From Candidatus Magasanikiibacteriota bacterium (lineage in GTDB: Bacteria > Patescibacteriota > Patescibacteriia > Magasanikbacterales > UBA922), in assembly GCA_041674805.1 (NCBI GenBank), contig JBAYVA010000002.1, positions 83,234 to 147,233 of the forward strand: DNA of 64,000 nucleotides, read 5' to 3'. The position numbers and the translations under genes are program-made. Below are positions 3,954-58,445 of the stretch, piece after piece; the stretch's first letter is position 1, and each line of letters begins with the position of its first letter. The notes below the pieces were generated by a model. It searched no databases and had not been told where the DNA came from. It saw only the letters and a program-made list of their open reading frames with translations.

Positions 3954-6900
3954 TTATTTAGAAATAAATTTTTTAATCAATTTTTTTATTTTTGAAAAAA
4001 TATTTTCTCCATTACTTTTCAAAAAAAGTCCAAACAAAATAGCAGTAAAACCACCAGCTGTAGCTGTTAAATATTTTTCAACAATATCCGCGTTGTCTTG
4101 CTCTTTGGCTTTTTCTTTTTTTGTTACCAAATCTTCACTAACACCTGTTTTAATAATATCATTTTGATCACGTGGCAACAATTGATATTCTGTTTTTGTT
4201 TGATGAAGTAGTCCAGTAATACTTACTAAATTACCTTCTTCAAATATATCTTTTTTTATACCAGCTCCTCTCTTAAAATATACTTTTATTTCCTCAGTTC
4301 CATCGTCTACATACATATAAGAACTTTTTATTTCTGTAATTTCACCACTTACCAAAATAAGACTACCTTCATATTGTTCCCCCACATCTTCTAATTCCAA
4401 GACTCTACCAATTGGTAATTCACTATGTCCCAATTTTTTTATATCATTTTTTTCTTTTAATTTTATTCTAGTTTCACCAGAAGTTTCTGTAATTTCTCCC
4501 ATAACTTCTATTTTGTCTCCCCTTTTTAAATCTGGAAAATCTTTACTAAACATATAAATTTGTACACCAGCATTTTCAGAAACTATATAAAAAATTTGTG
4601 TACCCATTATACCTGGTTCTACTGCTACTGTACCTGTCACACTAATCATATCACCCAAATCTTCATCACGTATTTTTTCTAAACTAGTGTTTATAACTGC
4701 TTTCACTGAATTACTCTTACTTTTTACTATTTTAACGGATTTTACTTCTGTTATTTCTTCTACAAAATTTACCTCACCAGGGCTAATAATTTTATTCCAA
4801 ATCCAGTTACCTTCACTATTACGAACATAAGAGGCTCCTTCTATTACATCATCAAATCTTACTTCCATTATAATAGTTCCATCAGGATACAAAAGACGCA
4901 CAGAATCACTAGTGTTATTCAAAGCCAACTTTGTATCTTGGCGACCAAAGACTTTATATTCTTTAGCTTTTATCAAAGTATTAGCTCCTACAGTATAAGC
5001 TTTTGATCCACCTTCTTCATCATCAATTTTTAAACCCGAAATATCAACATCTTCTTCTGTAGGATTGTGAATTTCAATAAATTCAGTAGTATCTGAACCT
5101 ACTGGATTTGGCAAAATCTCTGAAATGTACAAAACAGATATATCACTTGTTCCAGCATAACCACCCACAAAATCTTGAGACAATTTTACACTTAAAACAA
5201 CATCCTTTTTACTTTCATTACTACCATCACTTACTGTCAAAGATACAGTATAAACTCCTTGTTGCAAAAATTTATGTTCTACACTCGCGCCATCTTCATC
5301 AGTCCCATCAGCAAAATCCCAATGAAATTTTAAATCTTTTCCTTCTGGACTAACAGTATCAGAAGCATCAAATTTCACCCATTCATTTACAGCTACTTCG
5401 GTATCTACATCAAGTGCAATAATTGGTGCTGCACTTTTACCTTCTACTATGTTTTTGCTTCCAGCAGTAATTTTACTACTCCATACCCAAGTAGCATCAT
5501 CTTGCCTCACATAACTAAAAGAATCACTAGCACTACCAGGATAACTTACACTATTTACGATTGCCCCATTTGGAGAAAATAATTTTACTTCATCTCCTCC
5601 TGTATTATTTAGAGCTATTTGTGTCATAGTTCTTTTGAAAACAATGAATTCATTTGCTTTCAATACACCTTGTTTTATTGTATATTTTTTCTTACTAGAA
5701 TCAGATAATTGCCAATCTTTCAAATCAATAGTTTCTGTACCTTTATTCCAAATTTCAATAAACTCATCATCACTATCACTACCTGGAGGATTTGGATAAA
5801 TTTCATTCAAAACTATGTTTGTTTGCAAAGAAAAAATTTCTTGTTTTTCCAAATCTTCAGCTTTTAAAGATAAAACATTTTTTTGTCCCCTAGTAATAGT
5901 ATCTGTAATTATAAAATCATAATAATCATTATCAGCATCTTGTCCATCTGTTTTTCTTATCAACGAATATGGATCACTTGCCACAGCAGCATTATCATAA
6001 GTATTACCATCATCCCAATTGCCATAAGTAACTTTATCTATTTCTTTTTTACTAGGATCTAATAATAACAAAATATCACCAGCATTATTGAGACTTCCTT
6101 TTGGTTCCTCAATTACAAAAAAACCTTTAGGCAAAATAGTCCCTGTCAAAATCGTAATTGTTTCACTACCATCTTCCAAAGACCAATCATTTAAATCAAT
6201 AATTTCTGAAGTGTTGTTATATATTTCTACGAATTCTTTTTCTCCATCACTAGGATCAGAAACCAACTCGTTTATGACCAAATCTCGTGCATTATAATTT
6301 TTTGTTGTTACTTCAGAACTAGAAGACGAACCTCCACCAGAACTAGAAACTGGAATATTTTTAATAATATTGACTTCACCTGGCGTTGGTTCTGTGGTAA
6401 TAGAAAAATCATTTTTATTATTTCCCGTGTTTTGACCATCCACGATTCTCGCCACAGAATAAGGATCACTGTGTGCAGGAGCGTTGTCTGAAATATCTTC
6501 ATCAAAAAAATCTATCCAATCACCAAAACGCACTGTGTCTATCAAATTACCAGAATTATCATACAAAAAAATACCATCACCATCATTGTTCAATTTACTA
6601 GACAAAATATTTACTCGCAAAAAACTTTTTGTTTCCAAAATATTATCCAAAACCAAAATTTTTTTTGTGCTACTACTACTTTTGTCACCTTCGTGCACTT
6701 CCCAATCTTTCAAATCAATAGTAGAGGTAGAATTATTATATATTTCTACCCATTCATTTTCACCAGCCACAGGATCACTTACAAATTCATTAATAACTAT
6801 TTCATAATTAGGAATAGTATTTGTCGTGGTAGTAGTACTTTCAAAATTTTCTACTATACTAAAGTTAAAAATGTCACTTGCAAAATCATTTTTATCATCT

Positions 6901-7697
6901 ATAACTTTTAATTCAAGACTAAAGTTGCCAATATCAGAAAAAATATATGAAAAAAAAGAACTAGTTGATAAAAGTATATTATCAAACAACCAATTATACT
7001 CTACTATTTGGCCATCACTATCACTAGAAGTACTACCATCAAAATCTACAGCTTTTGATTTTTGAAAAATGTTTCCACTTGTAACAATTTTGGCAACAGG
7101 TTTTTGATTTTGAATATCATTATTATCTAAAGACCAATAATTTTTTTGTCCTACCGAATTATTGTCTGGATGTTCTTGCCAATTATCAATATTATTTATT
7201 GGCTGAAATACATCCATTCTTTCCAAAGAATGATTATTTTGGATGGCTTTATAAACAAAATTTTCTATGAAACTATCATCTTTTTTTAAACCTATTTCTT
7301 CTCCACCCTTGTTCAAAGTTGTCCAAGAACTGTCCAAAATTAAAGAAGAAAAATTTGGATATCTCTCAAAAAAATTCAAATCATTTTGAGTAATTACAGC
7401 GTATCCTTTTGGAGCTAAAATAAAAGTTTGAAACAAACTTTTTTCACTAATATTTAAACTATGATTAGTATCTGCTTCCCAAAATTTCCAGCCAGTCAAA
7501 TCCATACTTTCATCACCTTTGTTATAAATTTCTATCCACTGAAAACCACTTTCAGCACAACCAGTAGGACAAATTTCTGTAATCACCACATCATTATCAG
7601 AACCAAAAACAAAATTTTTAAATAAAAAAACACTCAATATAAGTGCTAAAAAAAACAAACTAAATTTTCTTAATTTAATAAAAAAAATTTTAATCAT
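3954..7697 (-). CDS. Giant secreted, membrane-anchored protein: 5 lamin-tail domains, 2 PKD-like domains, OB-fold-like module and C-terminal TM helix
   Basis: 1247 aa with an N-terminal signal/TM. Five repeats fit the pattern (I/V)xxNE(I/L)..P......E(F/W)(I/V)E(I/L)(Y/W/H)N....(I/V)DL..W. PKD-like segments include FHWDFADGTDEDG..YTVSLTVSDGSN. The C-terminal anchor is TAILFGLFL. Confidence 0.8.
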   Translation of the reverse strand: MIKIFFIKLRKFSLFFLALILSVFLFKNFVFGSDNDVVITEICPTGCAESGFQWIEIYNKGDESMDLTGWKFWEADTNHSLNISEKSLFQTFILAPKGYAVITQNDLNFFERYPNFSSLILDSSWTTLNKGGEEIGLKKDDSFIENFVYKAIQNNHSLERMDVFQPINNIDNWQEHPDNNSVGQKNYWSLDNNDIQNQKPVAKIVTSGNIFQKSKAVDFDGSTSSDSDGQIVEYNWLFDNILLSTSSFFSYIFSDIGNFSLELKVIDDKNDFASDIFNFSIVENFESTTTTTNTIPNYEIVINEFVSDPVAGENEWVEIYNNSTSTIDLKDWEVHEGDKSSSSTKKILVLDNILETKSFLRVNILSSKLNNDGDGIFLYDNSGNLIDTVRFGDWIDFFDEDISDNAPAHSDPYSVARIVDGQNTGNNKNDFSITTEPTPGEVNIIKNIPVSSSGGGSSSSSEVTTKNYNARDLVINELVSDPSDGEKEFVEIYNNTSEIIDLNDWSLEDGSETITILTGTILPKGFFVIEEPKGSLNNAGDILLLLDPSKKEIDKVTYGNWDDGNTYDNAAVASDPYSLIRKTDGQDADNDYYDFIITDTITRGQKNVLSLKAEDLEKQEIFSLQTNIVLNEIYPNPPGSDSDDEFIEIWNKGTETIDLKDWQLSDSSKKKYTIKQGVLKANEFIVFKRTMTQIALNNTGGDEVKLFSPNGAIVNSVSYPGSASDSFSYVRQDDATWVWSSKITAGSKNIVEGKSAAPIIALDVDTEVAVNEWVKFDASDTVSPEGKDLKFHWDFADGTDEDGASVEHKFLQQGVYTVSLTVSDGSNESKKDVVLSVKLSQDFVGGYAGTSDISVLYISEILPNPVGSDTTEFIEIHNPTEEDVDISGLKIDDEEGGSKAYTVGANTLIKAKEYKVFGRQDTKLALNNTSDSVRLLYPDGTIIMEVRFDDVIEGASYVRNSEGNWIWNKIISPGEVNFVEEITEVKSVKIVKSKSNSVKAVINTSLEKIRDEDLGDMISVTGTVAVEPGIMGTQIFYIVSENAGVQIYMFSKDFPDLKRGDKIEVMGEITETSGETRIKLKEKNDIKKLGHSELPIGRVLELEDVGEQYEGSLILVSGEITEIKSSYMYVDDGTEEIKVYFKRGAGIKKDIFEEGNLVSITGLLHQTKTEYQLLPRDQNDIIKTGVSEDLVTKKEKAKEQDNADIVEKYLTATAGGFTAILFGLFLKSNGENIFSKIKKLIKKFISK

Positions 7698-10528: not shown

Positions 10529-13363
10529 ATGCCGATACAAAAAAGGTCTTATGGTTACCTAAATAATCACAAAAAAAACAAAAATAACCCAAACTCCGAA
10601 CTAAAAAAGAAAATCAAAAAAATTATTTTATTAAGTACTTTGTTTTTATCTGTTTTCACGATACTTTTTGTGACAATTTTAACAGCTTGGATTAGTAAAG
10701 ACTTACCAGATCCAAACAAACTAACTGATAGAAAAATTGCCCAAAGTACCAAAATTTATGATAGAACAGGACAACACTTACTCTATGAAATTTTTGCTGA
10801 TGAAAAACGTACCCTTATTGAATTTGAACAACTACCAAAAGATTTGATAAATGGTGTAGTTGCTACTGAAGATACCAAATTTTATGAACACAGTGGTATT
10901 AGACCTTTATCTATCTTTCGTTCTATCATTGCAGGTATTTTTACCAAACAACGCATTGGCAGTGGTGCCTCTACTCTTACTCAACAACTAGTCAAAAATG
11001 CTATTTTAACTAATGAAAGATCTGTCTTACGTAAAATAAAAGAAGCAGTCATGACAATAAGATTGGAACAAAAATATACCAAAGAACAAATATTAAAAAT
11101 TTATTTCAATGAAATACCTTATGGCTCTACCAATTACGGTGTAGAATCAGCTGCCCAAAGTTATTTTGGTAAAAAAACTAGTGAATTAACACTGGCTGAA
11201 TCAGCTACTTTGGCAGGTATTCCCAAAGCCCCTTCCAAATATATAAATGACAATGAAGCTTTGAAACAAAGACGTGATTTCGTTTTACGCAGAATGTACG
11301 AAGAAGGATATATTACCGAAGAACAAAAAAATCAAGCTCAAGCTGAAGAACTAAAAATTAAAAAAACTTTTCATAAGATGGAAGCCCCTCATTTTGTTGA
11401 ATATGTACACGAGCAGTTGGCTGCCAAATATGGAGAAACAACTCTTGATACAGAAGGTCTAAAAGTCATAACTACTCTTGACTGGGACAAACAACAAATT
11501 GCTGAAAAAATAATGGAAGAAGAATCTGAACAAATATTAAAAGATGCTGGCGCCAACAACACATCTTTGGTAGCAATTGATCCCAAAACAGGACAACTGT
11601 TGGCTATGTTAGGTTCTCGTAATTATTATGATGACACTATAAAAGGTCAATTCAATGTAGCAACTTTGGGAACAAGACAGCCAGGTTCTTCTTTTAAACC
11701 TATTATTTATGCTGCCGCTTTTGAAAAAGGCTATACTCCCGATACTATTTTATTTGATACATTAACAAATTTTGCTGTTTCAGGACAACCTTATATTCCC
11801 AAAAATTATGATTTGAAAGAAAGAGGTCCTGTCACTATCAGACAAGCTCTGCAAGGATCTTTAAATATACCAGCTGTTAAAGCAATGTATCTTGTCGGTG
11901 AAAAAAATGCTGAAACATTCTCCAAAAAACTTGGTTACACTACTATTAAAGATGGACAAGCTGGTCTATCATTAGTCTTGGGTGGTGGAGCTGTAAAACT
12001 ATTGGAGCATACTAATACTTTTGCCACCTTTGCTAACAAAGGTTACAAAAATGAAATAGTTACTATTTTGAAAGTAGAAGATGCCAATGGCAAAATATTG
12101 GAAGAATGGAAAAACAAAAAAGGAGAAAAAGTAATAGAAGAAGATACCGCCAATAATATTTCTAATATTTTGAGTGATGACGCTGCTCGTGCTTATATGT
12201 TTGGGGCTGGAGGAATTTTGACTTTACCTGGTAGACCAGTAGCTGCCAAAACAGGTACTACCAACAACTACGTAGATTCTTGGACTATGGGCTATACACC
12301 TTCTTTGGCTACAGGTGTCTGGGCAGGAAACACTAATAATTCACCAATGAAAGCTGGTTATGGTGGTAGTATGGTAGCTGCCAAAATTTGGAACAGTTTT
12401 ATGAAACAGGCTTTACAAAACACTGCTGTAGAAAATTTTCCACCACTACCAAAAAATACAGCTGAAAAACCTGTGCTAAAAGGATCAGAAGGAGGAAAAG
12501 TTACTTTAAAAATAGACAAAGCCACAGGAAAATTAGCTTCTACTTCTACACCTGAATATTTGATTGAAGAAAAAACATATATACAAGCTCATTCCATATT
12601 ACATTATGTAAAAAAAGATGATCCACGCGGTGAAGCTCCAGAAAATCCTAGTGACGATCCACAATATCTTGGTTGGGAAAAAGGCATAGAAGATTGGATA
12701 AATAAAAATAAAGAAGCCAATCCTGAATGGAATTTTAGTTTTGAAGAACCACCAACAGAATATGATGATGCCCATAGTTTGGAATTATTACCAAGTATTG
12801 AAATTGTATATCCTGCAAATGACGGAAAAATAAATACCCGACAATTGGATACAGATATTCGTGTTAGTGCACCAAGAGGTATTGCCAAAGTAACTTATCA
12901 ATTAGATGGCGTTTATGTTGGTGTTGTAAATTTACATCCTTTCAATCTTCACTATTACATGGAAGAACAAGATTCTGGGGAACATACTCTAAAAATAACA
13001 GCTGAAGATGATATAGGAAACCGCATGGAAAAAGAAATAAAATTTATTTTGGAAACTTCCGAAGTAAAAGCTACTGTAACATTTTTAGAAAATTATAATA
13101 TCATTAAAAAAGAAAATTTTCCAAAAACAATTACTTTGAAACCTATCAAATTAAATGAAATAAAAAGTGTATCATTATATTATGAAAATAATGGACAAAA
13201 AAATTTGATAGAAACTATAAACACTTTTGATAATTTAATTAATAATCAAATATTTATTAGTTGGAAAAGTTCCCCACAAATTGGTAAATACAAATTATTA
13301 GCAGAAACAATTGATAATAATAATGAAAAATCAATTTCAACATTAGAAATAGAAATACAATAA
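10529..13363 (+). CDS. Class A penicillin-binding protein (PBP1A: glycosyltransferase + transpeptidase) with a long C-terminal extension
   Basis: GT51 motifs EDTKFYEHSGI and RKIKEA. Transpeptidase motifs SSFKP (SxxK) and KTGTT. N-terminal TM. About 250 extra C-terminal residues. Confidence 0.9.
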   Translation: MPIQKRSYGYLNNHKKNKNNPNSELKKKIKKIILLSTLFLSVFTILFVTILTAWISKDLPDPNKLTDRKIAQSTKIYDRTGQHLLYEIFADEKRTLIEFEQLPKDLINGVVATEDTKFYEHSGIRPLSIFRSIIAGIFTKQRIGSGASTLTQQLVKNAILTNERSVLRKIKEAVMTIRLEQKYTKEQILKIYFNEIPYGSTNYGVESAAQSYFGKKTSELTLAESATLAGIPKAPSKYINDNEALKQRRDFVLRRMYEEGYITEEQKNQAQAEELKIKKTFHKMEAPHFVEYVHEQLAAKYGETTLDTEGLKVITTLDWDKQQIAEKIMEEESEQILKDAGANNTSLVAIDPKTGQLLAMLGSRNYYDDTIKGQFNVATLGTRQPGSSFKPIIYAAAFEKGYTPDTILFDTLTNFAVSGQPYIPKNYDLKERGPVTIRQALQGSLNIPAVKAMYLVGEKNAETFSKKLGYTTIKDGQAGLSLVLGGGAVKLLEHTNTFATFANKGYKNEIVTILKVEDANGKILEEWKNKKGEKVIEEDTANNISNILSDDAARAYMFGAGGILTLPGRPVAAKTGTTNNYVDSWTMGYTPSLATGVWAGNTNNSPMKAGYGGSMVAAKIWNSFMKQALQNTAVENFPPLPKNTAEKPVLKGSEGGKVTLKIDKATGKLASTSTPEYLIEEKTYIQAHSILHYVKKDDPRGEAPENPSDDPQYLGWEKGIEDWINKNKEANPEWNFSFEEPPTEYDDAHSLELLPSIEIVYPANDGKINTRQLDTDIRVSAPRGIAKVTYQLDGVYVGVVNLHPFNLHYYMEEQDSGEHTLKITAEDDIGNRMEKEIKFILETSEVKATVTFLENYNIIKKENFPKTITLKPIKLNEIKSVSLYYENNGQKNLIETINTFDNLINNQIFISWKSSPQIGKYKLLAETIDNNNEKSISTLEIEIQ

Positions 13364-48065: not shown

Positions 48066-49232
48066 TTAGGCAAAAGAAAGTCCTGGTTCCAACATCATTT
48101 CTTCATTTTCTATTTTTGTTTTTTGAAAAATATTTTGGTTGGCATAAAATTTTTCATTGGTTGCCATTAGTCTAATGTTTTTACCATTTTCTACTAAATA
48201 CTGAATACCGTTACCACAAATTTTGTTGTCAGCTACATCTTTTTGACCAATGATAACCCATTTTAGTTGTGGCATATCAGATATAAGATGTGAGCATGGT
48301 GTATATTTGCCATTACGATAGGTGCATGGTTCCATTGTACAATAAAGCATGTATTCGTGTTCTTCCCAATCAGGAGTATTATTTTTTAGCATAGACAAAG
48401 CATCTTGTTCAGCATGAACATGTCCACGTCTGTATCCCCAAGCAGAAATTTCGAAAGTTTCAGAATCTACCAATGTGGCTCCTACGCCATAGCCGTGTCT
48501 AGATTTATTTGAAACATCTTCAGCTAATCGTTCAGTGATAGTATAAAATCTACGGTTTACGTCAGCCCAAAAAACATCTTTGAAACGACTAGACATACTA
48601 CAAATTACTTTATTATTTTCTATATAAGTATCAAAAAGGTAGGAATAATCATATTTTTCAAAAATATCATTTTTTTGTCTATAATTACTTTTATCATTTA
48701 CACAATAAATGCCTGTAATTTTTGTATCTGAGCTTATTGACTCAACTGCTTTTACCATATTTACAATAGTTCCTCCAGTTGAAGCCATACAGTCTACAAT
48801 AGCAATTTTTTTATTTTTTAGAGCTTTACTCATATACATTGTACGTTCGTAATAGCCTGTTTGTTGTGAAAAATCAACACATTCTATATCATAATGAAAT
48901 GTTTTGGCAATAATCAAAGGAAGTCGTAATTGTGCAGCGATCAAAGTAGCAATGCCTATACCATCAGATTCTATAGACAGTATAACTTCGGTATCTTTTG
49001 GTATCATTTCTGCTAAATATTTTGCCAAAGTGTTATAAATTCCTTGATTAGCTAGAGTAAAACCTTTGAAAGGATATATAAAATATTGATAATTAGAAAC
49101 AGTACCACCTTTACTATCAGTTGTACGTATTTGTGCTTCACGAAATAAATTCATAGCATCACCTACATCTTTTTTTATGGCTATTATTTCTTGATATGTT
49201 TGTTGAAGTTCTTTTTCAAGAAGATTTAACAT
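48066..49232 (-). CDS. Fusion protein: APRT-like phosphoribosyltransferase domain + RibD/CDA-type zinc deaminase domain
   Basis: 388 aa. The N-terminal half has VILSIESDGIGIATLIAAQLRLPLIIAK and a PRPP loop KKIAIVDCMASTGGTIV. The C-terminal half has HVHAEQDAL and YCTMEPCTYRNGKYTPCSHLI (compare RibD YVTLEPCsHhGrTpPC). Confidence 0.6.
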   Translation of the reverse strand: MLNLLEKELQQTYQEIIAIKKDVGDAMNLFREAQIRTTDSKGGTVSNYQYFIYPFKGFTLANQGIYNTLAKYLAEMIPKDTEVILSIESDGIGIATLIAAQLRLPLIIAKTFHYDIECVDFSQQTGYYERTMYMSKALKNKKIAIVDCMASTGGTIVNMVKAVESISSDTKITGIYCVNDKSNYRQKNDIFEKYDYSYLFDTYIENNKVICSMSSRFKDVFWADVNRRFYTITERLAEDVSNKSRHGYGVGATLVDSETFEISAWGYRRGHVHAEQDALSMLKNNTPDWEEHEYMLYCTMEPCTYRNGKYTPCSHLISDMPQLKWVIIGQKDVADNKICGNGIQYLVENGKNIRLMATNEKFYANQNIFQKTKIENEEMMLEPGLSFA

Positions 49233-49438: not shown

Positions 49439-50089
49439 TTATTCTATATTTATTTTATCTCCCAAAAACTTTGGTTGAATATCAAATAATAAATCAAGCA
49501 TCATTTTGAGTCGTGCGAAGCTTTCCCTGATTTGTATTTTTGTATTAGCATAAGATTTTACATTACGAGCATTGTATCCTATAGCGTCTATACCTTTTTT
49601 GTTGGCAATATATATGGCACGTTCATTGTGGAATTTTTGTGAGATGATAGTAATATTCTCTTGTCCAAATATTTCTTTGCTTCGGACGACTGAGTCTAGA
49701 GTTCGAAAGCCAGCATAATCGAGGAAGATGCTCGAAGTCGGCACGCCAGCTTCTATCAAATCATTTTGAATAGTTGTTGGTTCATTGTATTTCTTTGTGC
49801 TGTTGTCTCCACTTACTAAAATAAAATCAATTTTGTTAGCTTCAAAAAGTTTTTTGGCAGCTGTAATTCTATAAGCATAATAAGCATTTATTCTGCCATC
49901 TTTCAAATATTTACTTGTGCCGAGTAATAATCCGACTTTGTTGTGAGGAATATTTTCTATTGAATCATAAATTTTTTCGTCAGTGTTTTTTTCTATTATT
50001 TTGTTGGTGATAATAATAGATGAAGAAAGAAAAATAAAACTCAAGAAAAAAATTAGTAAAAGTTTTAAGAATATTTTTTTCATAATCAA
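49439..50089 (-). CDS. sanA: SanA/YdcF (DUF218) family envelope protein
   Basis: 216 aa. N-terminal TM, then GLLLGTSKY...INAYY..R...A..L....K...ILVSGDN....YNEP, typical of SanA. Confidence 0.8.
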   Translation of the reverse strand: MIMKKIFLKLLLIFFLSFIFLSSSIIITNKIIEKNTDEKIYDSIENIPHNKVGLLLGTSKYLKDGRINAYYAYRITAAKKLFEANKIDFILVSGDNSTKKYNEPTTIQNDLIEAGVPTSSIFLDYAGFRTLDSVVRSKEIFGQENITIISQKFHNERAIYIANKKGIDAIGYNARNVKSYANTKIQIRESFARLKMMLDLLFDIQPKFLGDKINIE

Positions 50090-50643
50090 AACTTCTCCGT
50101 AATATGCAAATGTTTTCTAATTTTATTTTTCCAAGTTTCAAAACTTTCTACCAAAGTTATCAATCCCAACATCACCATGATGAATACTACTGGCTGAGTA
50201 GAATATTGAGGCAGATTAAAAATGCTAAAATTTTGTAAAAATAATTTTAATAATTGCCAGATAATCATTGAGACTAGAGTTGCTAACAAAAATTTAATTA
50301 CGAAAAAATCAAAGTTGAGAAAATTCTGTATGAACTTGCCATCCATTTTTTTTAACCAATTAATATATTTTTGGGAGACAGGATGTTTTTTTGTGTATAG
50401 TAAAAATAATTTGATTATGAAAATAATGATTCCAGAAATAAGAATAGTCAACATAATATCGAAGACTACATGCCACCAAGTAGGGTATTCTTTTCTGATA
50501 GTATTAACCAAAGGTGTGTCCATTAGTTTTAAGCCCGCTGGCAAGGTGAGGGTGGCATAGAGGAAGACAATAGCCGTGACTCTCTGTATCCAGAGCAATA
50601 TTTTGCTGTGTGTTTTTTGGTTTGGATAGTATGTTTTGTTCAT
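50086..50643 (-). CDS. Membrane protein, function unknown
   Basis: 185 aa with 4-5 hydrophobic helices. A 4-nt overlap with sanA suggests co-translation. Confidence 0.45.
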   Translation of the reverse strand: MNKTYYPNQKTHSKILLWIQRVTAIVFLYATLTLPAGLKLMDTPLVNTIRKEYPTWWHVVFDIMLTILISGIIIFIIKLFLLYTKKHPVSQKYINWLKKMDGKFIQNFLNFDFFVIKFLLATLVSMIIWQLLKLFLQNFSIFNLPQYSTQPVVFIMVMLGLITLVESFETWKNKIRKHLHITEKF

Positions 50644-50700
50644 AGTTTATAGACTTTACAAAGGTTCAATGTTATGTTATTTTAACATATGCGGAAGATA

Positions 50701-50729
50701 TTGACAAAAGTAGCAAAATGTGCTACACT
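50701..50729 (+). promoter_or_regulatory. Promoter of the first giant surface-protein gene
   Basis: TTGACA (50701-06), 17-nt spacer, TACACT (50724-29), giving a leader of about 130 nt. A paralogous TTGACA lies at 53923-28 upstream of the second gene. Confidence 0.55.
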
Positions 50730-50866
50730 ACTCCGTTTATTACACATATATAAAAAGGCTTTATTTAGCCGATTAATTCATAATTTACAAATGGTTGTGA
50801 TTTCCATAAACCATTATAATGTGTAGTCATTTTAATTTATACATATTAAGTCTAATATATTCGTCT

Positions 50867-53788
50867 ATGAAAAAGAACTTTTTCGCTAAACTAGGCCATT
50901 TTTTCCTGGTTTCAGCTGTTTTATTCAATGGTTTTGGTGTAGCCTTTGTGAAGGCTGATGTTGTAGAAGTTTTGGGTATGTCTCCAAATACAGCAACTTT
51001 GTCTGAGGGTGACATTAACCCTATTTCTTTAGTAACAATTTCTAATTCATCTACTAGTACTATAAATCTAACATTTACTATGTCAGGTGAAGCTGTTAGA
51101 AGTATAGATGGTAGTGGTGATTATGAATTGTTTGTTGGGGAAGGTTCTCCATTTGTAGTTGTTGATACAAACTTAATAAGTGTGCCTGCAAATGATTCTG
51201 TCATCTTTCCTATAAATATTATAAATGACACAGTATCAGAAAATGCAGAATCTTTTGGTTTGACATTTGAAACAGCTAGTTATGATGATGAAAATAGAAC
51301 ACCTGTAGAAGGTTTTAGTTCTCGTGGTGCTATAAATTTTACTATCAATGATAATGATATTACACCTCCTACTTTTGATACTATTGTCCCTAGTCCATTT
51401 TCAAGAAATGAAAGTGATAATTTTGGTGGTATTGCTACTTTTATAAATAATGCTAGTACAACTTTAGATTTTCATTTTGAAATTAGTGGAACAGCTTCTA
51501 CATCTGATTATATAATTGAAACAACTAGTCGTAGTATAAATGAAAATGGAGATGTTATGGCGGTGCCTAATAGTGTGGATTTAGAAAATGGTATAATTAG
51601 TGGGGTTACAGGAAATGAAAAAAGAAGATTTAATTTTAAACCAGTAGAGGACACAGAAGTAGAAATTGATGAAACAGTTATTATTACATTGAAATATGCT
51701 ACTGATATTGAACAAAGAGTTTATGATTTTGCAGATATTTCTTACACTACTATTATTAAAGATAATGATACTGCATCCACTACTACCACAGCTAACGTCA
51801 CATTTTCTTTTTCAACTTCTACTATTAATGAAAATTCTGGTAATGTAAATGTTGCTAATGTTATTAATAATGAAAATCAAGATGTATCTGTGAAATTTAC
51901 ATTTTCTGGCACAGCAGTATATGGCACAGACTATACTTTGAGATCAGGAACTGGTACTTCTATTTTTGGTAATGGTACAGAAGCAGTACTTTTGATAGGT
52001 ATTAATAGTAGTAGTAGTTTTCCTTTGACTCTGAATACAGTTGATAGTGATAAAACTGTTGAAATTACTCTTACACAAGTAAATTTTGCGGATAATTCAA
52101 CAACAACATCTTTCACTGCAGGAAATGTTACAACACATACACTTACTATCAAAAATGTTCCTACATCAGGTGAAAATAATATTCCAACAATAAAAACACC
52201 GATAGCCACACAATATATAGATCTTTATGTTACTTCTACATTAACTATTAATAATGAAATATTAAAGAATTTATTTTTTGATTTAGATACTAATGATAGA
52301 GTTGGTATTAGTTTGACTAATAATACAGATGCTACTGTTGTAACAACAACATCAGACATAGAATTTTCTAGTTTAGTATTAACAGGTTTAAAAGTTGGAA
52401 CAAGTACTATTGAACTTACTGGTGATGATCATCGTGGTGGTATTGTTACCTCAACTTTCGATGTAATCGTTACTGATTCTACTCCTGTTGAGGGAAATAA
52501 TGCTCCAACATCAACTGTAATAGATGATAAAACATTGGAGGTTGGTCAGACTTTTGATATTATTCCTAGTGTTATTTTTGAAGATGTAGAAGATAGTGAT
52601 GATAAGTTAACTTATGGTGTAGAAATTAGTGCTGGTTCTGTTGTTTCTGTAACAACAACAAATTTTACAAATTCTTGGGCATATACTTTTACTGCTGAAA
52701 GTGTAGGTACTTCTACAATTACTCTTAGTGCAACTGATTTGGGTGGTCTTAGTACAAGTACATCATTTAAGGTAACTGTCACAGAAGATGTAACACCTAT
52801 ATTAATAAAAGAAATAGTTAATCAAACTTTAAAAGTAGGTGAAAGTGTAGTTTTGAACTTAAATGATTATTTTTCAGATCCAAACGAAGATGTCTTGTCT
52901 TTTTTAACAAGTATTAACGTTCCAAATTTAATTACTACAACACTTAATACTGAAACAAATAAATTAACAATTACTGGTGTAGCTATAGGTACAACTCTTA
53001 TGAGTGTTACTGCCTCTGATAGTCAACATAGTGTTTATGATATATTTAATGTCACAGTAAAAGAAAATAATGAAGGTAATACTGATAACAATACCGGTTC
53101 AAGTAACGGCGGTGGTAGTTTATTACCAAACACAGCTCCTCAAGCTTCTATGGTTGTTGGTCAAGAAGTAACTATCGAAGTAAACAAAGAAATTACTTTT
53201 GATGCTAGTAGTAGTGTAGATAAAGAAGGAAACATTAGATTTTATTTCTGGAACTTTGGTGACGGAAGTGATGAAGTATATTACACTGTCCCAACAGTCA
53301 AATATACTTATACTAAAATAGGTAATTACACTTTGAATATCAAAGTAAAAGATGCTTACGGTGCTGAGAGTAGTGCGCAAGTAAAGGTAAAAGTTGTAGC
53401 TGGCAAAGCTTCTACAAATACGGGAACTCCAAATACTAATACTGAAAGTGGAACTAAAACTGAAACTGAAACTACAACTTCTACTTCAACAACTGATACC
53501 CCAACTCCTGTAGAAGAAACTGGAAGTACTGGTAGTACAAATAATAATACTAACAATAACACTTCTGCTAATAATACTGAAGAAGAAGCAATAACAACTG
53601 AGGAAGAAAATACTTCTATAGAAGAAGAGACTACTTCTGAAAATACTGAAGAAGAAATTACTGAAGAAGTACCTGCTGAAACAACAGAAGAATTACCAAC
53701 TTGGATCAAGATCATCTTTGGCAGTGGTGCTCTAGCTGCTATTGCTGGCGCTGGACTTGCTATCAATAGAGTGAGAAAAAATGTGTAA
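50867..53788 (+). CDS. Giant surface protein A: signal peptide, Calx-beta-like repeats, cadherin/Ig-like repeats, PKD domain, T/N/E-rich linker, C-terminal TM anchor
   Basis: The start is set at MKKNFFAKLGHFF.. by homology to the paralog. Calx-beta-like blocks include FTMSGEAV..GDYEL.. and FTFSGTAVYGTDYTL. PKD segment is FYFWNFGDGSDEVYYTVPTVKYTYTKIGNYTL. Anchor is WIKIIFGSGALAAIAGAGLAINRVRKN. Confidence 0.8.
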   Translation: MKKNFFAKLGHFFLVSAVLFNGFGVAFVKADVVEVLGMSPNTATLSEGDINPISLVTISNSSTSTINLTFTMSGEAVRSIDGSGDYELFVGEGSPFVVVDTNLISVPANDSVIFPINIINDTVSENAESFGLTFETASYDDENRTPVEGFSSRGAINFTINDNDITPPTFDTIVPSPFSRNESDNFGGIATFINNASTTLDFHFEISGTASTSDYIIETTSRSINENGDVMAVPNSVDLENGIISGVTGNEKRRFNFKPVEDTEVEIDETVIITLKYATDIEQRVYDFADISYTTIIKDNDTASTTTTANVTFSFSTSTINENSGNVNVANVINNENQDVSVKFTFSGTAVYGTDYTLRSGTGTSIFGNGTEAVLLIGINSSSSFPLTLNTVDSDKTVEITLTQVNFADNSTTTSFTAGNVTTHTLTIKNVPTSGENNIPTIKTPIATQYIDLYVTSTLTINNEILKNLFFDLDTNDRVGISLTNNTDATVVTTTSDIEFSSLVLTGLKVGTSTIELTGDDHRGGIVTSTFDVIVTDSTPVEGNNAPTSTVIDDKTLEVGQTFDIIPSVIFEDVEDSDDKLTYGVEISAGSVVSVTTTNFTNSWAYTFTAESVGTSTITLSATDLGGLSTSTSFKVTVTEDVTPILIKEIVNQTLKVGESVVLNLNDYFSDPNEDVLSFLTSINVPNLITTTLNTETNKLTITGVAIGTTLMSVTASDSQHSVYDIFNVTVKENNEGNTDNNTGSSNGGGSLLPNTAPQASMVVGQEVTIEVNKEITFDASSSVDKEGNIRFYFWNFGDGSDEVYYTVPTVKYTYTKIGNYTLNIKVKDAYGAESSAQVKVKVVAGKASTNTGTPNTNTESGTKTETETTTSTSTTDTPTPVEETGSTGSTNNNTNNNTSANNTEEEAITTEEENTSIEEETTSENTEEEITEEVPAETTEELPTWIKIIFGSGALAAIAGAGLAINRVRKNV

Positions 53789-53812
53789 GATTGTTTGATA
53801 ATATAAAAAATA

Positions 53813-53850
53813 AAGAAGCTATTCATATATATTGAGTAGCTTCTTTTTTT
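53813..53850 (+). terminator. Terminator after surface protein A
   Basis: Stem aagaagcta / tagcttctt followed by a T-run. Confidence 0.65.
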
Positions 53851-54158
53851 ATGAAGTTTTGATTGTTCACACATAGACTTTACAAGATATAAAGATTATG
53901 TTAATTTAATATATGTAGGATGTTGACAAAAATAGTATGGTATGTTGTTAATTTCTCTCATATTTAGATACATTCAAAGGCTTTATTTGGCCAATTAGTA
54001 ATTCAAAATGGTCGTGACCATTCACATAAACCATTGTAATATATAGTCAGTTTACTCATACTTAAAAAGTATGATAAATTTATCTATTAATTCATACTAA
54101 TTGAGTATGATATATTTAACTTATTAATTCAAAATTACCAAGTTTAATATATTTACTT

Positions 54159-57100
54159 ATGAAAAATAATTTTTTTGCTAAACTGGGAAACTTTTTTCTG
54201 GTTTCGGCTGTATTGTTCAATGGTTTTGGGGTAGGTTTGGTAAGTGCAGAATATGCAGAAGTTGTCTCTCCCACATTCTCTTTACTTGTTGATAATGTAA
54301 AAGAAGGAAATTTAGGAGAAACAACTACTTATAATGTTGGTGTAAAATATAATGGTCCAGTTTTGGTCTCTGATTATACTGTGGAAGTAATATTTTATAG
54401 TGTTTTAAATGATACTTTTGCTGAATATGGTGTTGATTATGAGGTACCTAATTCTGTGCCTAATTTGGAAGATTCTTCGTATTTTCTTACTTTTACGCCA
54501 GCAACACAAAATGATGAATTGTTTGTTCCTGTAACTGTTATGGGTAACGATACTATTAATAGTTTTAATGTTTTATTCAAATACATTATTTTTACTATAA
54601 AAGGTATTAATATCGACCAACCTGACCAGCTGTTTGGTTTGAGTATTGAAGATGATGATGTTCCTACTATTATTGAACCAATATTTACTCCCGCTACTTC
54701 TGTTGTCTATGAAGGTGTTGCTACAGGAGCTAATGTTACTAAGTTGGTAAACAATAATAATACTGATTTAATTTATACTATTGAACTTACTGGTGATGCT
54801 TTACTCGAACAAGAATTTGGATTGTCTGTTATTGATGAACAAAATATCTCTACACCAATCATGAGTAATTTTTTCAATCTTTCTGTACCAAGAAATTCTA
54901 GTTCTACTTTTTCTGTTCGTACAAATGGTATTTATGATAATTCGTCTTTTGATAATGTTGCAAAACAGACAATTTGGACTGTAACAAATGCGTTTGATGA
55001 GAGTATCTTTATTGATTATGATTTATCTTTAAGTAATATCAACTTTACTTTGGATATAAAAGATGAGGAAAATGATGTAGGTTTTATAAATCCAGCTTCA
55101 TCTGTTGCAGAAGGAATTTCATTGAATGACTCTAATTCATCACTTGTATACAACAATGGTACTGACAATGATGTGTCTTTGACATTTGAACTTTCGGGTA
55201 CGGCATCTTCTTTAACGGATTATACTGTAAGAACAAATGAATTGAGTTCAGGTTCTACTTGGGTAGTACCAAAAAATTCTATTAAATCTTTTCCTGTAGA
55301 TATCTTGAATGTAACTGGTGAAAAAAATTTAGTGTTTACAATTACAAAAATAGATTTATTAAATGACAATGGTACCATTAAAAATGGAAATATTACACCT
55401 ATTTTACCGAATGCACAGACACACACTTTGACAATTCTGGATAATGTTGTACCGCCTGTAAATCATGCACCTGTTGCAATTATGCAACCAATACTTTTGG
55501 GTAATGTTAATGTTGGTTCAAACTCAACCCCTGTTTCATTTTCAACCACTTTTTCAGATCCTGATTCAGATGTACTTACATATAGTGTAGAACTTTCAAA
55601 TCCTGTAATTGCAACATCTCAAATAACAGCAGGTGAGTTGGTACTTACAGGAACAAGTGTCGGTACAACAACAGTAACAATGATGGCTACAGATCCTGAT
55701 GGCTTGAGTGCTAGTACCACGTTTAGTTTGACTGTCGTAGAAAATAATAATGGTGGTGGAAATAATTCTCCAACAGTAAATATTCCAATAGCCACACAAT
55801 ATATTGATCTCTATACTACTTCCACATTAACTATTAATAATGCAATATTGCAGAATTTATTTTCTGATGCTGATGTTAATGACATAGTTGGTATTAGTTT
55901 GACTAATAATACAGATGCTACTGTTGTGACAACAACACCAGGCATAGAATTTTCTAGTTTAATGTTGACAGGTTTGAAAGTCGGTGCAAGTGTTATTGAA
56001 CTTACGGGAGATGATACACATGGTGGTATTGTTACCTCTACTTTTGCGGTAATCGTTAGTGACTCTACTCCTATAGAAGGAAATAATGCTCCTACATTAT
56101 CAACTACAACAGTATTTGTAGATAACGAAATTTCTTTGCAAGAAACATTTGGATCAAATCTTCATCTTTATTTCGAAGATGTTGATGCGGGTGATACATT
56201 AACTTTTTCAGCTACTACAACTGATGCTTCTATAGTGACAAGTGGAATTGACGCATTGGGTCAAATAACACTGACACCACATAATTATGGTACAGTTCAA
56301 GTAATTGTTACTGCCACAGATAATCAAGGTGCTAGTGTCTCTGATGCATTTTCTTTGAAAGTAAATACTCCACCAGAATTAACAGTAAATACTTTAGGAA
56401 ATAAACAAATTGATTTGAAAGTATCATCTAGTTTGTTAATAGATAGTAATACAATTCGTGGTGTTTTTACAGATAGAGATGGAGAAATACTTACTATTTC
56501 TGTAAGTGATAATAGTGATAATACTGTTGTAACAACTACTCTTGGAGAAGATGATTCTCTCACTTTACTTGGTTTAAAAGTGGGAACAAGTACGATTGAA
56601 ATCACTGCTGACGATGGTTATGAAATTACCTCTACTACATTTCTTGTTACGGTTGTAAATTCTACATCTGAAGAAACAGGGAATAATGGTGGCAACTCTG
56701 GCAGTTCAAGTGGATCTAGTGGCGGTGGTGGTTCTGCTCTTCTTTCTAATACAGCTCCTCAAGCTGCTATAACTAATGGTCAAGAAGTAACTGTGGAAGT
56801 AAACAAAGAAATTACTTTTGATGCTAGTCAAAGTACTGACAAAGAAAATAATATTAGATTTTACTTCTGGAACTTTGGTGATGATAGTGATGAAGTATAT
56901 TACACGGTACCAACAGTCAAACATACTTATACTAAAATAAGTAATTACACTTTGATAAGCAAAGTACGTGATGCTTACGGTGCTGAGAGTATTGCTGAAG
57001 TAAAAGTAAAAGTTGTAGCTGCTAAAGGTTCTACAAATACGGGAACTACAAATAATACTTCAAATACTAATACAGAAAGTGAAACTAAAAATGAAACTAC

Positions 57101-57431
57101 AATTCCAAAAACTGATACAACTACATCTGTAAAAGAAACTGGAAGTACTGGTACTACTACAAATACTAATAACAATAATTCTTCTAACAATACTGAAGAA
57201 GAAACAGTTATTGAAGAAGAAATTATAGAAGAAAGTACAATTGAGGAAGAAGATACTTCTTCTGAAGAAGAGTTTATTTTTGAAAATATCAAAGAAGAAA
57301 GTATTAAAGAAACACCAGTTGGAGAAGTAGAAGAACTACCAACTTGGATAAAAATCATCTTTGGTAGTGGTGCTTTAGCTGCTGTAGCTGGCGCTGGTCT
57401 TGCTATTAATAAAGTGAGAAAGAATATATAA
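54159..57431 (+). CDS. Giant surface protein B (paralog of A)
   Basis: 1090 aa. It shares a near-identical signal peptide, an internal block (PIATQYIDLY.TSTLTINN.IL.NLF.D.D.ND.VGISLTNNTDATVVTTT..IEFSSL.LTGLKVG.S.IELTGDD..GGIVTSTF.VIV.DSTP.EGNNAPT), the PKD domain and the C-terminal anchor with protein A. Confidence 0.8.
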   Translation: MKNNFFAKLGNFFLVSAVLFNGFGVGLVSAEYAEVVSPTFSLLVDNVKEGNLGETTTYNVGVKYNGPVLVSDYTVEVIFYSVLNDTFAEYGVDYEVPNSVPNLEDSSYFLTFTPATQNDELFVPVTVMGNDTINSFNVLFKYIIFTIKGINIDQPDQLFGLSIEDDDVPTIIEPIFTPATSVVYEGVATGANVTKLVNNNNTDLIYTIELTGDALLEQEFGLSVIDEQNISTPIMSNFFNLSVPRNSSSTFSVRTNGIYDNSSFDNVAKQTIWTVTNAFDESIFIDYDLSLSNINFTLDIKDEENDVGFINPASSVAEGISLNDSNSSLVYNNGTDNDVSLTFELSGTASSLTDYTVRTNELSSGSTWVVPKNSIKSFPVDILNVTGEKNLVFTITKIDLLNDNGTIKNGNITPILPNAQTHTLTILDNVVPPVNHAPVAIMQPILLGNVNVGSNSTPVSFSTTFSDPDSDVLTYSVELSNPVIATSQITAGELVLTGTSVGTTTVTMMATDPDGLSASTTFSLTVVENNNGGGNNSPTVNIPIATQYIDLYTTSTLTINNAILQNLFSDADVNDIVGISLTNNTDATVVTTTPGIEFSSLMLTGLKVGASVIELTGDDTHGGIVTSTFAVIVSDSTPIEGNNAPTLSTTTVFVDNEISLQETFGSNLHLYFEDVDAGDTLTFSATTTDASIVTSGIDALGQITLTPHNYGTVQVIVTATDNQGASVSDAFSLKVNTPPELTVNTLGNKQIDLKVSSSLLIDSNTIRGVFTDRDGEILTISVSDNSDNTVVTTTLGEDDSLTLLGLKVGTSTIEITADDGYEITSTTFLVTVVNSTSEETGNNGGNSGSSSGSSGGGGSALLSNTAPQAAITNGQEVTVEVNKEITFDASQSTDKENNIRFYFWNFGDDSDEVYYTVPTVKHTYTKISNYTLISKVRDAYGAESIAEVKVKVVAAKGSTNTGTTNNTSNTNTESETKNETTIPKTDTTTSVKETGSTGTTTNTNNNNSSNNTEEETVIEEEIIEESTIEEEDTSSEEEFIFENIKEESIKETPVGEVEELPTWIKIIFGSGALAAVAGAGLAINKVRKNI

Positions 57432-57449
57432 TTTCTTAATTGTGAAATT

Positions 57450-57483
57450 AAAAAACACTGTCCGTGATAGGACAGTGTTTTTG
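57450..57483. terminator. Bidirectional terminator between surface protein B and miaA
   Basis: Stem acactgtcc / ggacagtgt flanked by A- and T-runs. Confidence 0.75.
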
Positions 57484-57494
57484 TTTTCTTAATT

Positions 57495-58445
57495 TTAATC
57501 TTTTAAAAATTTTGCTATCAATTTTTCTGCTTCATCTCTATTTTCTAGCCAGTTGATTCTTTGGTCACGCTTGAACCAAGTCATTTGTTTTTTGGCAAAA
57601 TGTTTGGTCTCTCTTTTCAGTTTTTTGATAGCATCTTCCAGGCTTTCTTTTCCTTCTAAATGATCACGAAATTGACGATAACCAATACCACTCATACTTG
57701 GTAAGTCCCAGCTGTATTTTTGTTTTTGTAGTTTTTTTATTTCTTCCAAAATTCCTTCTTGTATCATTTTGTCAACGCGATCCTCTATTCTTTGGTGAAT
57801 AATTTCTTTTTCTGCTTTGAGGCCAATTTGTAAAATATCAAAAAGTTGTTCGCCCATTTTTTGTTGAGTAGAAAATGGTTCACCGCTGAGGATACTGACT
57901 TCTAGAGCTCGGATAATTCTTCTTTTGTTGTTGATATCAATTATTTCGGCAGAAATAGGATCTACTTGTTTTAACCATTCGACTAGATCTTCAATACTTT
58001 TTTCTTCGAAACTTCTTCTTAGTTTTTTGTTGGGAGCAATTCTTGGCATCTTATAATTATCAACTAGTGATTGTATATACATACCAGTACCACCGACCAC
58101 AAAAGGAATTTTATTTTTCATGTGGATCATCTTGGCATACTTGATGGCTTGGTCGTGAAATTCGGCGGCAGTGAAATATTTGCCAGGATCAAGGAAATCT
58201 ACCAAATAATGTGGAACATCATCAACATAATAATTTTTTTTGAAACCCTCGCGTTTCCATTGACCGAGAGGTTTGGCTGTGCCTATGTCCATTTTTTTAT
58301 AAAGTTGTCTTGAATCTGCTGAAATTATTTCTCCTCCAAATTTTTTGGCCAAATGCAAACTCCAATCAGTTTTGCCACTGGCGGTAGGTCCCAAGATGAC
58401 AATTAGTTTGGGAAGTTGTGTGTTTTCTGTATGTTTGTTGGACAC
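57495..58445 (-). CDS. miaA: tRNA dimethylallyltransferase
   Basis: 316 aa. P-loop ILGPTASGKT, SADSRQLYK.MDIGTAKP. Confidence 0.9.
   Translation of the reverse strand: MSNKHTENTQLPKLIVILGPTASGKTDWSLHLAKKFGGEIISADSRQLYKKMDIGTAKPLGQWKREGFKKNYYVDDVPHYLVDFLDPGKYFTAAEFHDQAIKYAKMIHMKNKIPFVVGGTGMYIQSLVDNYKMPRIAPNKKLRRSFEEKSIEDLVEWLKQVDPISAEIIDINNKRRIIRALEVSILSGEPFSTQQKMGEQLFDILQIGLKAEKEIIHQRIEDRVDKMIQEGILEEIKKLQKQKYSWDLPSMSGIGYRQFRDHLEGKESLEDAIKKLKRETKHFAKKQMTWFKRDQRINWLENRDEAEKLIAKFLKD

Follow-up and report, generated by a model that had tools for sequence, protein, structure and literature searches.

The DNA analysed here is a 64,000-nucleotide (nt) stretch, hereafter the window, from an uncultured groundwater bacterium annotated as Candidatus Magasanikbacteria (Patescibacteria, in the candidate phyla radiation (CPR)). 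With a G+C content of approximately 30%, it encodes two consecutive paralogous genes, hereafter A and B. We consider it probable that A and B are tandem, type-I membrane-anchored surface proteins of a small, lineage-restricted family, in which a conserved frame is combined with exchangeable heads. The frame would consist of a leader and signal peptide, one conserved immunoglobulin (Ig)-like domain (I*), a PKD domain, an acidic Thr-rich stalk, a Pro-Thr-Trp (PTW) motif, a transmembrane (TM) helix and a basic tail, and the distal head that it would carry varies, being composed of beta-sandwiches of the Calx-beta-like and Ig-like kinds. The data show that segments of the frame serve as homology anchors for recombination and that entire heads have been replaced between strains and between the two slots of the locus, which has left this genome with two unrelated heads, labelled Y in A and X in B, on near-equivalent frames.

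A preliminary description of this DNA had proposed two consecutive genes of 973 amino acids (aa), starting at 50867, and 1090 aa, and both open reading frames (ORFs) are indeed found on the + strand; it had also called the products giant, and at about 1000 aa they are large, not giant. Position 50867 is preferred as the start of A because it aligns with the start of B, because the homologous leader of B has no upstream ATG, and because the public call is also of 973 aa. Both proteins are annotated publicly as 'PKD domain-containing protein [Candidatus Magasanikbacteria bacterium]', and a 186.8-kb ENA metagenome contig contains the sequence of the window as well. So far, members of this small family have been seen only in Magasanikbacteria-type metagenome-assembled genomes (MAGs); a search of the full-text literature on Magasanikbacteria and Patescibacteria surface proteins returned nothing on it. 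Where they are compared with related public loci (L002, L003 and so on), the two genes are labelled W_A and W_B; L3_A and L3_B are the slot-A and slot-B genes of L003, and L5_S is the single-copy gene of L005.

Architecture of A and B

The two proteins follow a common design (Table 1), with an N-terminal hydrophobic helix, strings of beta-sandwiches, one PKD domain, a disordered linker of approximately 100 aa (the stalk), one C-terminal TM helix and a basic tail. The signal peptide, Ig-like repeats, PKD domain, T/N/E-rich linker and single TM helix are as the preliminary description had them, but the Calx-beta blocks that it named are below the Pfam cut-off in A (PF03160, 23.5 bits on one stretch, aa 311-370, against a cut-off of 27 bits) and unmatched by Pfam in B. 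The only domain to exceed Pfam cut-offs in A and B is PKD (PF18911 and PF00801, with cut-offs of 27 and 23.5 bits), with 59 and 42.6 bits in A and 49.1 and 31.1 bits in B, and it is matched in all 15 family members examined. In the PDB, the PKD domain has profile matches in the PKD domains of the collagenases ColH and ColG, and the whole-family profile retrieves PKD domains only.

The heads contain a domain of approximately 120 aa, which a repeat hidden Markov model (HMM) finds in two to four copies in every family member. A profile made from 18 family repeats has its best PDB matches in the Calx-beta domains CBD1 and CBD2 of NCX1 (E 4e-4 to 4e-3), and three more distant relatives on the same frame, P0026, P0029 and P0030, pass the Pfam Calx-beta cut-off with 39-63 bits. 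In B, the head starts with a domain that is poorly modelled (aa 31-170), followed by a pair of Calx-beta-like domains (aa 176-298 and 309-426) and an Ig-like domain (aa 449-529). Altogether, B has four Ig-like domains before its PKD domain, stalk and TM helix; the second of the two that follow I* (aa 741-835) is itself a diverged copy of I* (47% aa identity). The two Ig-like domains that follow I* in A (aa 549-641 and 644-735) are missing from L3_A, L2_A and L11_A. The stalks of A and B are composed of 24-32% T, 23-24% E and 13% N. AlphaFold2 (AF2) models of the two proteins are mediocre, with a mean predicted local distance difference test (pLDDT) score of 62.6 for A and 59.7 for B, but the strings of domains are nonetheless clear. 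A Foldseek search of the PDB for a specific fold in the model of A gave generic Ig strings only (cadherins, protocadherins, titin, SbsB, EA1, Sap and SraP).

Mosaic relationship between A and B

Pairwise alignment of the two loci shows that divergence is uneven along their length, so that the mosaic reported in the preliminary description is real, though overstated. Comparison by blastn finds three collinear shared segments, the signal peptide, the block corresponding to I* and the last ~220 codons, which lie where that description placed them; it had called them almost identical, and their DNA identities are only 84%, 85% and 79%, respectively. Three extra matches of 23-45 nt fall inside repeated domain motifs. 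Outside the shared segments blastn detects nothing, and a forced protein alignment gives approximately 32% identity, which bears out the strong divergence of the N-terminal halves. At the protein level, A and B are 92% identical in the signal peptide (residues 1-25), 81% in the block, 81% in the PKD domain, 54% in the linker and 91% in the TM region.

To tell selection apart from shared ancestry, we took the aligned codon pairs of A and B that specify the same amino acid and measured the fraction in which the codon itself is identical. This fraction is 54% in the signal peptide, the heads and the mid region alike, and rises to 79% in the I* block, 84% in the PKD domain, 82% in the stalk and 72% in the TM region. 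Bootstrap intervals of the proportion of synonymous differences (pS) agree, with 0.14-0.39 for I*, PKD and stalk versus 0.48-0.64 for the heads and mid region, and no overlap; for I* alone, pS is 0.28 (95% confidence interval 0.19-0.38). The higher synonymous codon identity and the non-overlapping pS intervals indicate that I* and the last ~220 codons are of younger common ancestry than the rest. The signal peptide is a different case: over residues 1-30, pS is 0.64 and the proportion of nonsynonymous differences (pN) is 0.09, and codon identity is at the 54% background, so its likeness reflects purifying selection on the protein only. The likeness of I* and the last ~220 codons could stem from the duplication itself, followed by head replacement, or from an old exchange.

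Mutagenesis of the block by a diversity-generating retroelement was considered and rejected, since mismatches are spread over all base pairs and codon positions and show no adenine bias. A tblastn search of the window with A and B, looking for silent donor cassettes, gave only a weak PKD-like match outside the two genes, at 5223-5429. This match (35% over 74 aa to A) sits in a 1247-aa ORF on the - strand (3954-7697), which may encode a surface protein, not one of the A/B family.

Head replacement among strains

Related genomes carry one or two family genes in the same syntenic slot: one in L014/L038, L005/L037, L018/L040, L019 and L015, and two in the sub-clade of the window. The alignment of the window with L003 shows where similarity breaks off and resumes. 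DNA identity is 94.6% over 50086-50957, a span that takes in the divergent neighbouring gene tm185 and the intergenic DNA, together with the first 90 nt of A. Across 50957-52169 there are only two off-diagonal matches, to the upstream region and the start of B. Similarity resumes at 86% in the block (52174-52510), is reduced to a 45-nt repeat match up to 53126, over the further Ig-like domains of A, and then runs unbroken at 90.9% from 53126 to 57455.

Other pairs of strains show the same discordance between heads and flanks. Compared with L020, the window is 93.9% identical in tm185 (nucleotides) and 88% identical in the A tail (aa), with an A head at 27.6% aa identity; L027 and L012 are 99.1% identical in tm185 (nucleotides), with tails at 80% and heads at 31% aa identity. 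Strains whose adjacent gene is 94-99% identical thus have slot-A heads that are just 28-31% identical. The head of W_A is instead nearest to heads of the distant genomes L014, L038, L040 and L015 (57-65% aa). Heads also appear in the other slot: the Y head of W_A resembles the slot-B heads of L011 and L004 (43-45%), and the X head of W_B resembles heads that L011, L003 and L005 carry in slot A or in a single-copy gene (40-44%). Gene B is conserved among the window, L002 and L003 (89-91%), and the W_B head is approximately 90% identical to those of L2_B, L3_B and L8_B. Among B orthologues, the ratio of nonsynonymous to synonymous substitution rates (dN/dS) per domain is 0.15-0.41, lowest in I* (0.15-0.16), which is purifying and rejects positive selection on B. 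Because B is under purifying selection among strains, diversity arises by cassette exchange rather than by point mutation.

I*, found in most family members, records recombination within its own length. L4_B and L3_B are 64% and 68% identical in the first two sub-blocks of I* and 96% identical in the third, a crossover inside the domain, and the similarity of L004 and L011 to B starts inside the block, at approximately 55843 by megablast and at 55770 by the more sensitive blastn. A permutation test of the pairwise homoplasy index (PHI) type, implemented in this analysis, was run on the block as aligned without gaps in nine family genes (321 nt); the observed value is 0.345, versus a permuted value of 0.426 +/- 0.013 (p<0.0005). 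The codon contrast, the PHI-type test, the discordance of heads and flanks and the slot swap together characterise A and B as members of a recombining, mosaic surface-protein family.

The signal peptide of W_B (54159-54248) encodes a protein sequence identical to that of L2_B and L3_B (pN 0) with a pS of 0.62-0.67, as opposed to a pS of 0.06-0.31 in the rest of the gene; its codons form a short imported tract that ends at the signal-peptide boundary. A large number of public contigs have one of their ends within the two genes (L002/L016, which are from the same MAG, L004, L008-L013, L017, L021 and L027), and in one MAG the break coincides with the beginning of A, so that the copy lacks its signal peptide. 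Such breaks fit strain heterogeneity disrupting assembly at the locus.

As to function, A and B are predicted to be exported by Sec; the C-terminal helix would hold them in the cytoplasmic membrane and the stalk would span the wall. The heads may then bind external ligands, such as another cell, a polymer or Ca2+-dependent partners, and diversifying or frequency-dependent selection, exerted by partners, hosts, phages or predators, may maintain their diversity. The adhesion and host-attachment role put forward in the preliminary description, and the episymbiotic lifestyle that it considered, are plausible hypotheses; the role fits the domain content.

Alternative explanations

The preliminary description attributed the mosaic to gene conversion or recombination between the paralogues. 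Recombination has shaped these genes, as the codon contrast, the PHI-type test and the crossover indicate, but we see no recent conversion in this genome, and the main process appears to be head replacement. Concerted evolution, in which recent conversion within the genome keeps parts of A and B alike, would suit two adjacent genes in the same orientation whose block, PKD domain and stalk are of lower synonymous divergence than the rest. It is nevertheless improbable: the shared parts are only 79-85% identical, and sister strains carry syntenic tandem pairs (L002, L003/L020, L008-10, L011-13, L017, L021 and L027), with flanking genes that differ from the window by a pS of 0.20-0.41, to which the two copies can be compared. 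Across 90-nt windows of the C-terminal region, the identity of W_A to L3_A and L2_A is mostly 87-98%, with 75-84% in two stalk windows; that to W_B is 65-89%, below the orthologue value in every window. The comparison of W_B with L3_B and L2_B gives mostly 83-98%, and 70% in the last window, which extends beyond the stop codon. In the block, W_A is approximately equidistant from all A and B copies (80-82% aa; pS 0.22-0.29). In no window of the C-terminal region are the paralogous tracts of W_A and W_B closer than the orthologous ones, as recent concerted evolution would make them. Because each copy is nearer to its sister-strain orthologue than to its neighbour, we find no trace of recent conversion between A and B in this genome, and because orthologue identity exceeds paralogue identity in the C-terminal windows, their likeness predates the split of the sister strains. 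A history free of recombination, in which the mosaic reflects uneven purifying selection along two old paralogues, is very unlikely. The signal peptide does behave in this way, and I* has the lowest dN/dS among B orthologues, but uneven selection does not account for a synonymous codon identity of 79-84% in the shared blocks against the 54% background, for the PHI-type result and the sharp switch from 64-68% to 96% inside the block, or for strains whose heads are unrelated and whose flanks are 99% identical.

Since the window comes from a MEGAHIT-style metagenome contig and many related contigs end inside the pair, one copy, or the mosaic itself, might be suspected to be an assembly artefact. 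We find this scarcely credible: even where they are most alike, the copies differ by 15-21%, which also disposes of an assembly duplication; their longest exact match is 23 nt, too short for a mis-join at k=141; both proteins are unchanged on a second, longer contig of 317 kb; and the same tandem layout recurs in independent JGI, ENA and NCBI assemblies. It is a real, if minor, possibility that A and B are structural envelope components, forming an S-layer or a wall-spanning scaffold instead of acting as adhesins, with head variation serving escape from phages or predators. The Foldseek matches include the S-layer proteins SbsB, EA1 and Sap; the layout, with a signal peptide, then Ig-like domains, a stalk rich in Thr and a TM anchor at the C terminus, recalls that of archaeal S-layer glycoproteins; and the locus is present in every related genome seen. 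However, a pectate-lyase-like adhesive domain is among the other heads on this frame, nothing here signals lattice-forming behaviour or very high expression, and cadherin-like and adhesin matches in Foldseek are equally good. The present data are compatible with an adhesin role as well as with an S-layer-like one.

Several points weigh against the reading of A and B as recombining, head-bearing surface proteins. Adhesion, surface exposure and Sec export are suggested by domain content only, and the Calx-beta assignment itself is below the Pfam cut-off for both proteins. The structural models have a mean pLDDT of 60-63 and rest on a shallow alignment, and the Foldseek matches of the A model are generic Ig strings, S-layer proteins included. 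The synonymous substitution rate (dS) between A and B, ~0.3-0.4 in shared blocks versus ~1 elsewhere, hinges on forced alignments in the parts that are ~30% identical, and we relied on same-amino-acid codons and orthologue comparisons instead. As contigs break within the pair, some of the strain mosaics could be chimeras of metagenome assembly. Finally, the I* of L5_S (L005 10001-12634; block 11587-11901) is 81% identical in nucleotides to that of the window and, over the final third of the block, has synonymous variants in common with L11_A and L3_A, with a block pS of 0.34-0.45, whereas its PKD domain, signal peptide and TM region and the neighbouring tm185 are synonymously saturated (0.69-0.85). 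This could reflect transfer between lineages, but a constraint on the DNA could also give the low pS.

The C-terminal module and sorting signals

The C-terminal end is invariant across the family, reading P-T-W-I-x-I-x-F-G-S-G-A ... A-G-A-G-x-A-x-N-x-x-R in 15 proteins (PTWI.I.FGSGA....AGAG.A.N..R). When a profile built on the final 42 residues was run against 1.84 billion representative proteins, no more than 18 clusters came up at E <= 1e-8, and in all 18 a PKD domain lies directly upstream of the tail, with diverse heads. Among relatives P0027/P0023, one PKD-stalk-PTW-TM frame bears a Pfam 'pectate lyase-like adhesive domain' as its head. Another bears an unrelated N-terminal part that has no signal peptide, and may be a truncated or chimeric call. 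Within the window, the tail occurs on just two ORFs. Because it is found solely behind the PKD domain of the family, we take the tail to be part of a family-specific frame and not a general tag.

Known sorting signals do not match this module. It is not an LPXTG sortase substrate, since the motif reads [LM]-P-T-W-I and lacks the T-G of positions 4-5, and no NCBIfam LPXTG model matched. Among the CTERM sorting domains (PEP-CTERM, PGF-CTERM, GlyGly-CTERM and others), the best is GVDTG_CTERM with 16 bits against a cut-off of 29, over the TM part only. An RTX adhesin is likewise rejected, as no RTX-repeat family is among the Pfam matches reported for A, B and the 15 members, and a helix resembling a signal peptide is present at the N terminus.

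Leaders, transcription units and neighbouring genes

A strong terminator-like hairpin follows each gene and a homologous leader precedes each, which suggests that A and B are transcribed independently and that the whole unit was duplicated. The A leader is conserved upstream of the slot-A genes in L003, L011 and L014, and is ~70% similar to the B leader. A consensus promoter scan of the stretch upstream of B gave no promoter-like site on the + strand. Of the three tandem units in the B leader (54051-54158), the first two carry the palindrome TCATACTnnnnnAGTATGA and the third is degenerate; the A leader (50736-50866) has one such unit of 35-36 nt. A hairpin, AAATGGTT...AACCATT, is common to both leaders, and RNAalifold shows no compensatory changes or covariation in it. 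These palindromes and the hairpin could be operator sites or a regulatory 5' untranslated region. A scan of the window with Rfam gave tRNAs only.

Directly upstream, and outside the span covered by the preliminary description, lies tm185, divergent to gene A. Aligned across six orthologues, its product has the invariant motif EYPTWWH. The gene is adjacent and divergent to a family gene at every locus for which upstream DNA is available, including loci with different outer flanks, and is found in only four GTDB representative genomes, all of them Magasanikbacteria. Searches of Pfam, NCBIfam and the PDB gave no relatives (best 19.5 bits against a cut-off of 40). Judging from this gene order, a functional link between tm185 and the surface proteins is plausible, and the tm185 protein may be a membrane partner of the A/B proteins. 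A more speculative proposal, which we hold to be doubtful, is that the frame and tm185, with its EYPTWWH motif, form a dedicated two-part surface-display system of this Magasanikbacteria clade, in which tm185 would hold or process the anchor and the heads would set partner or host specificity, in the way that swapped receptor-binding proteins determine the host range of phages. If so, exchange of heads between strains would be the main way in which these cells change their attachment target.

On the far side of B, miaA (57495-58445, - strand) is synonymously saturated against L002, L003, L004 and L014 (pS 0.63-0.69, 79-82% aa), and the adjoining miaB has a pS of 0.20-0.36 against L002 and L003. 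Allele replacement appears to reach beyond the surface-protein genes into the flank of their locus, at miaA. Beyond tm185, a gene on the - strand (48066-49232) encodes a 388-aa protein with a phosphoribosyltransferase domain and a cytidine/deoxycytidylate deaminase-like domain (Pfam 29 and 31 bits), which is 96% identical (aa) in L003.

Table 1 Features of the A/B locus, in positions of the window
Feature	Position	Strand	Basis or remark
tm185	50086..50643	-	185 aa, roughly 4-TM orphan membrane protein
A promoter-like site (TTGACA-17-TACACT with TG) and leader of ~130 nt	50701..50866	+	Consensus scan
Gene A	ORF 50819/50867-53788	+	989 aa, or 973 aa from 50867
A signal peptide	50867..50956, aa 1-30	+	N-terminal helix in AF2 model
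A head (Y-type cassette)	50966..52156; Calx-beta-like beta-sandwiches aa 34-172, 187-300, 308-430 (~120 aa each)	+	AF2 and repeat HMM
A I* (the block)	52172..52492, aa 436-542; blastn limits 52169-52511	+	blastn, AF2
A two further Ig-like domains	52511..53071, aa 549-641 and 644-735	+	AF2
A PKD	53129..53401, aa 755-845	+	Pfam PKD_4, 59 bits (cut-off 27)
A T/E/N-rich disordered stalk	53402..53695	+	Composition; pLDDT ~25-30
A C-terminal module (invariant P-T-W, Gly/Ala-rich TM helix, basic tail, stop)	53696..53788	+	Invariant columns in 15 proteins
Terminator-like hairpin after A	53812..53846	+	14-pair stem, then T run
B upstream region (TTGACA box, A-homologous leader, three tandem 35-36-nt units)	53922..54158	+	Box at ~53924 by eye
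Gene B	54159-57431	+	ORF, 1090 aa
B signal peptide and head (X-type cassette)	54159..55745	+	Repeat HMM, AF2
B I*	55758..56078; blastn limits 55755-56097	+	blastn, codon alignment
B two further Ig-like domains	56121..56663, aa 655-737 and 741-835	+	AF2
B PKD	56748-57023	+	Pfam
B T/E/N-rich stalk	57024-57338	+	Composition
B PTW-TM-basic tail	57339-57428, stop codon to 57431	+	Family alignment, AF2
Terminator-like hairpin after B	57451..57482	+	
Shared segment 1 (signal peptide)	A 50867-50942, B 54159-54234	+	blastn
Shared segment 2 (block, I*)	A 52169-52511, B 55755-56097	+	blastn
Shared segment 3 (last ~220 codons)	A 53129-53782, B 56748-57425	+	blastn, gapped

Comparison with known systems

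A and B belong to an uncharacterised, lineage-restricted family; recombining modular surface proteins are already well known, and the locus adds no new principle. Little is established on the cell surface or contacts of most CPR/Patescibacteria lineages, and the locus provides a concrete, variable and strain-discriminating candidate, suited to read-level studies of microdiversity, to strain typing of Magasanikbacteria, and to tests of how the heads are expressed and what they bind.

Strings of Ig-like or Calx-beta-like domains are also found in large Ca2+-dependent adhesins of the RTX type (LapA, MpIBP) and in stalked adhesins of Gram-positive bacteria such as SraP, where the distal parts bind ligands, and SraP is among our Foldseek matches. 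RTX adhesins use type I secretion, carry C-terminal RTX repeats and are several thousand residues long, and SraP is LPXTG-anchored, whereas A and B have a Sec-type signal peptide, a C-terminal TM anchor and a length of ~1000 aa, and the families that the Pfam and NCBIfam scans reported for them include neither RTX nor LPXTG. Archaeal S-layer glycoproteins, such as the PGF-CTERM/ArtA substrates of Haloferax, have a Thr-rich stalk and a C-terminal anchor. A and B resemble them in layout, with a signal peptide, Ig-like or PKD-like domains, a Thr-rich segment that is probably glycosylated, and a conserved short motif ahead of the TM helix and the basic tail. Unlike them, A and B have no PGF motif and match no NCBIfam CTERM model above its cut-off, and their tail is confined to one family. 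No archaeosortase- or exosortase-like gene neighbours A and B; the gene beside them encodes an orphan 4-TM protein.

In behaviour, A and B resemble several mosaic surface-protein families of other bacteria. In Helicobacter pylori babA/babB and Neisseria opa/pil, gene conversion occurs between surface-protein paralogues, frequently within a genome and often with phase variation. Similar to these, A and B are mosaic paralogues in which conserved 5' and 3' segments would act as recombination anchors around a variable middle or head; unlike these, exchange within the genome is not recent and exchange appears to occur mainly between strains, and no silent cassettes were found in the window. In the mrp-emm-enn genes of Streptococcus pyogenes and in pneumococcal PspA/PspC, a conserved signal peptide and C-terminal anchor flank hypervariable N-terminal parts, and recombination produces chimeric alleles. 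M and M-like proteins and PspA/PspC are coiled coils, or are choline-binding or LPXTG-anchored, whereas A and B are strings of beta-sandwiches on a plain TM helix, with no LPXTG, and vary by whole cassettes. What A and B have in common with the M and M-like proteins and with PspA/PspC is the arrangement of adjacent paralogous surface genes with conserved ends and variable distal parts, together with recombination between strains and between paralogues.

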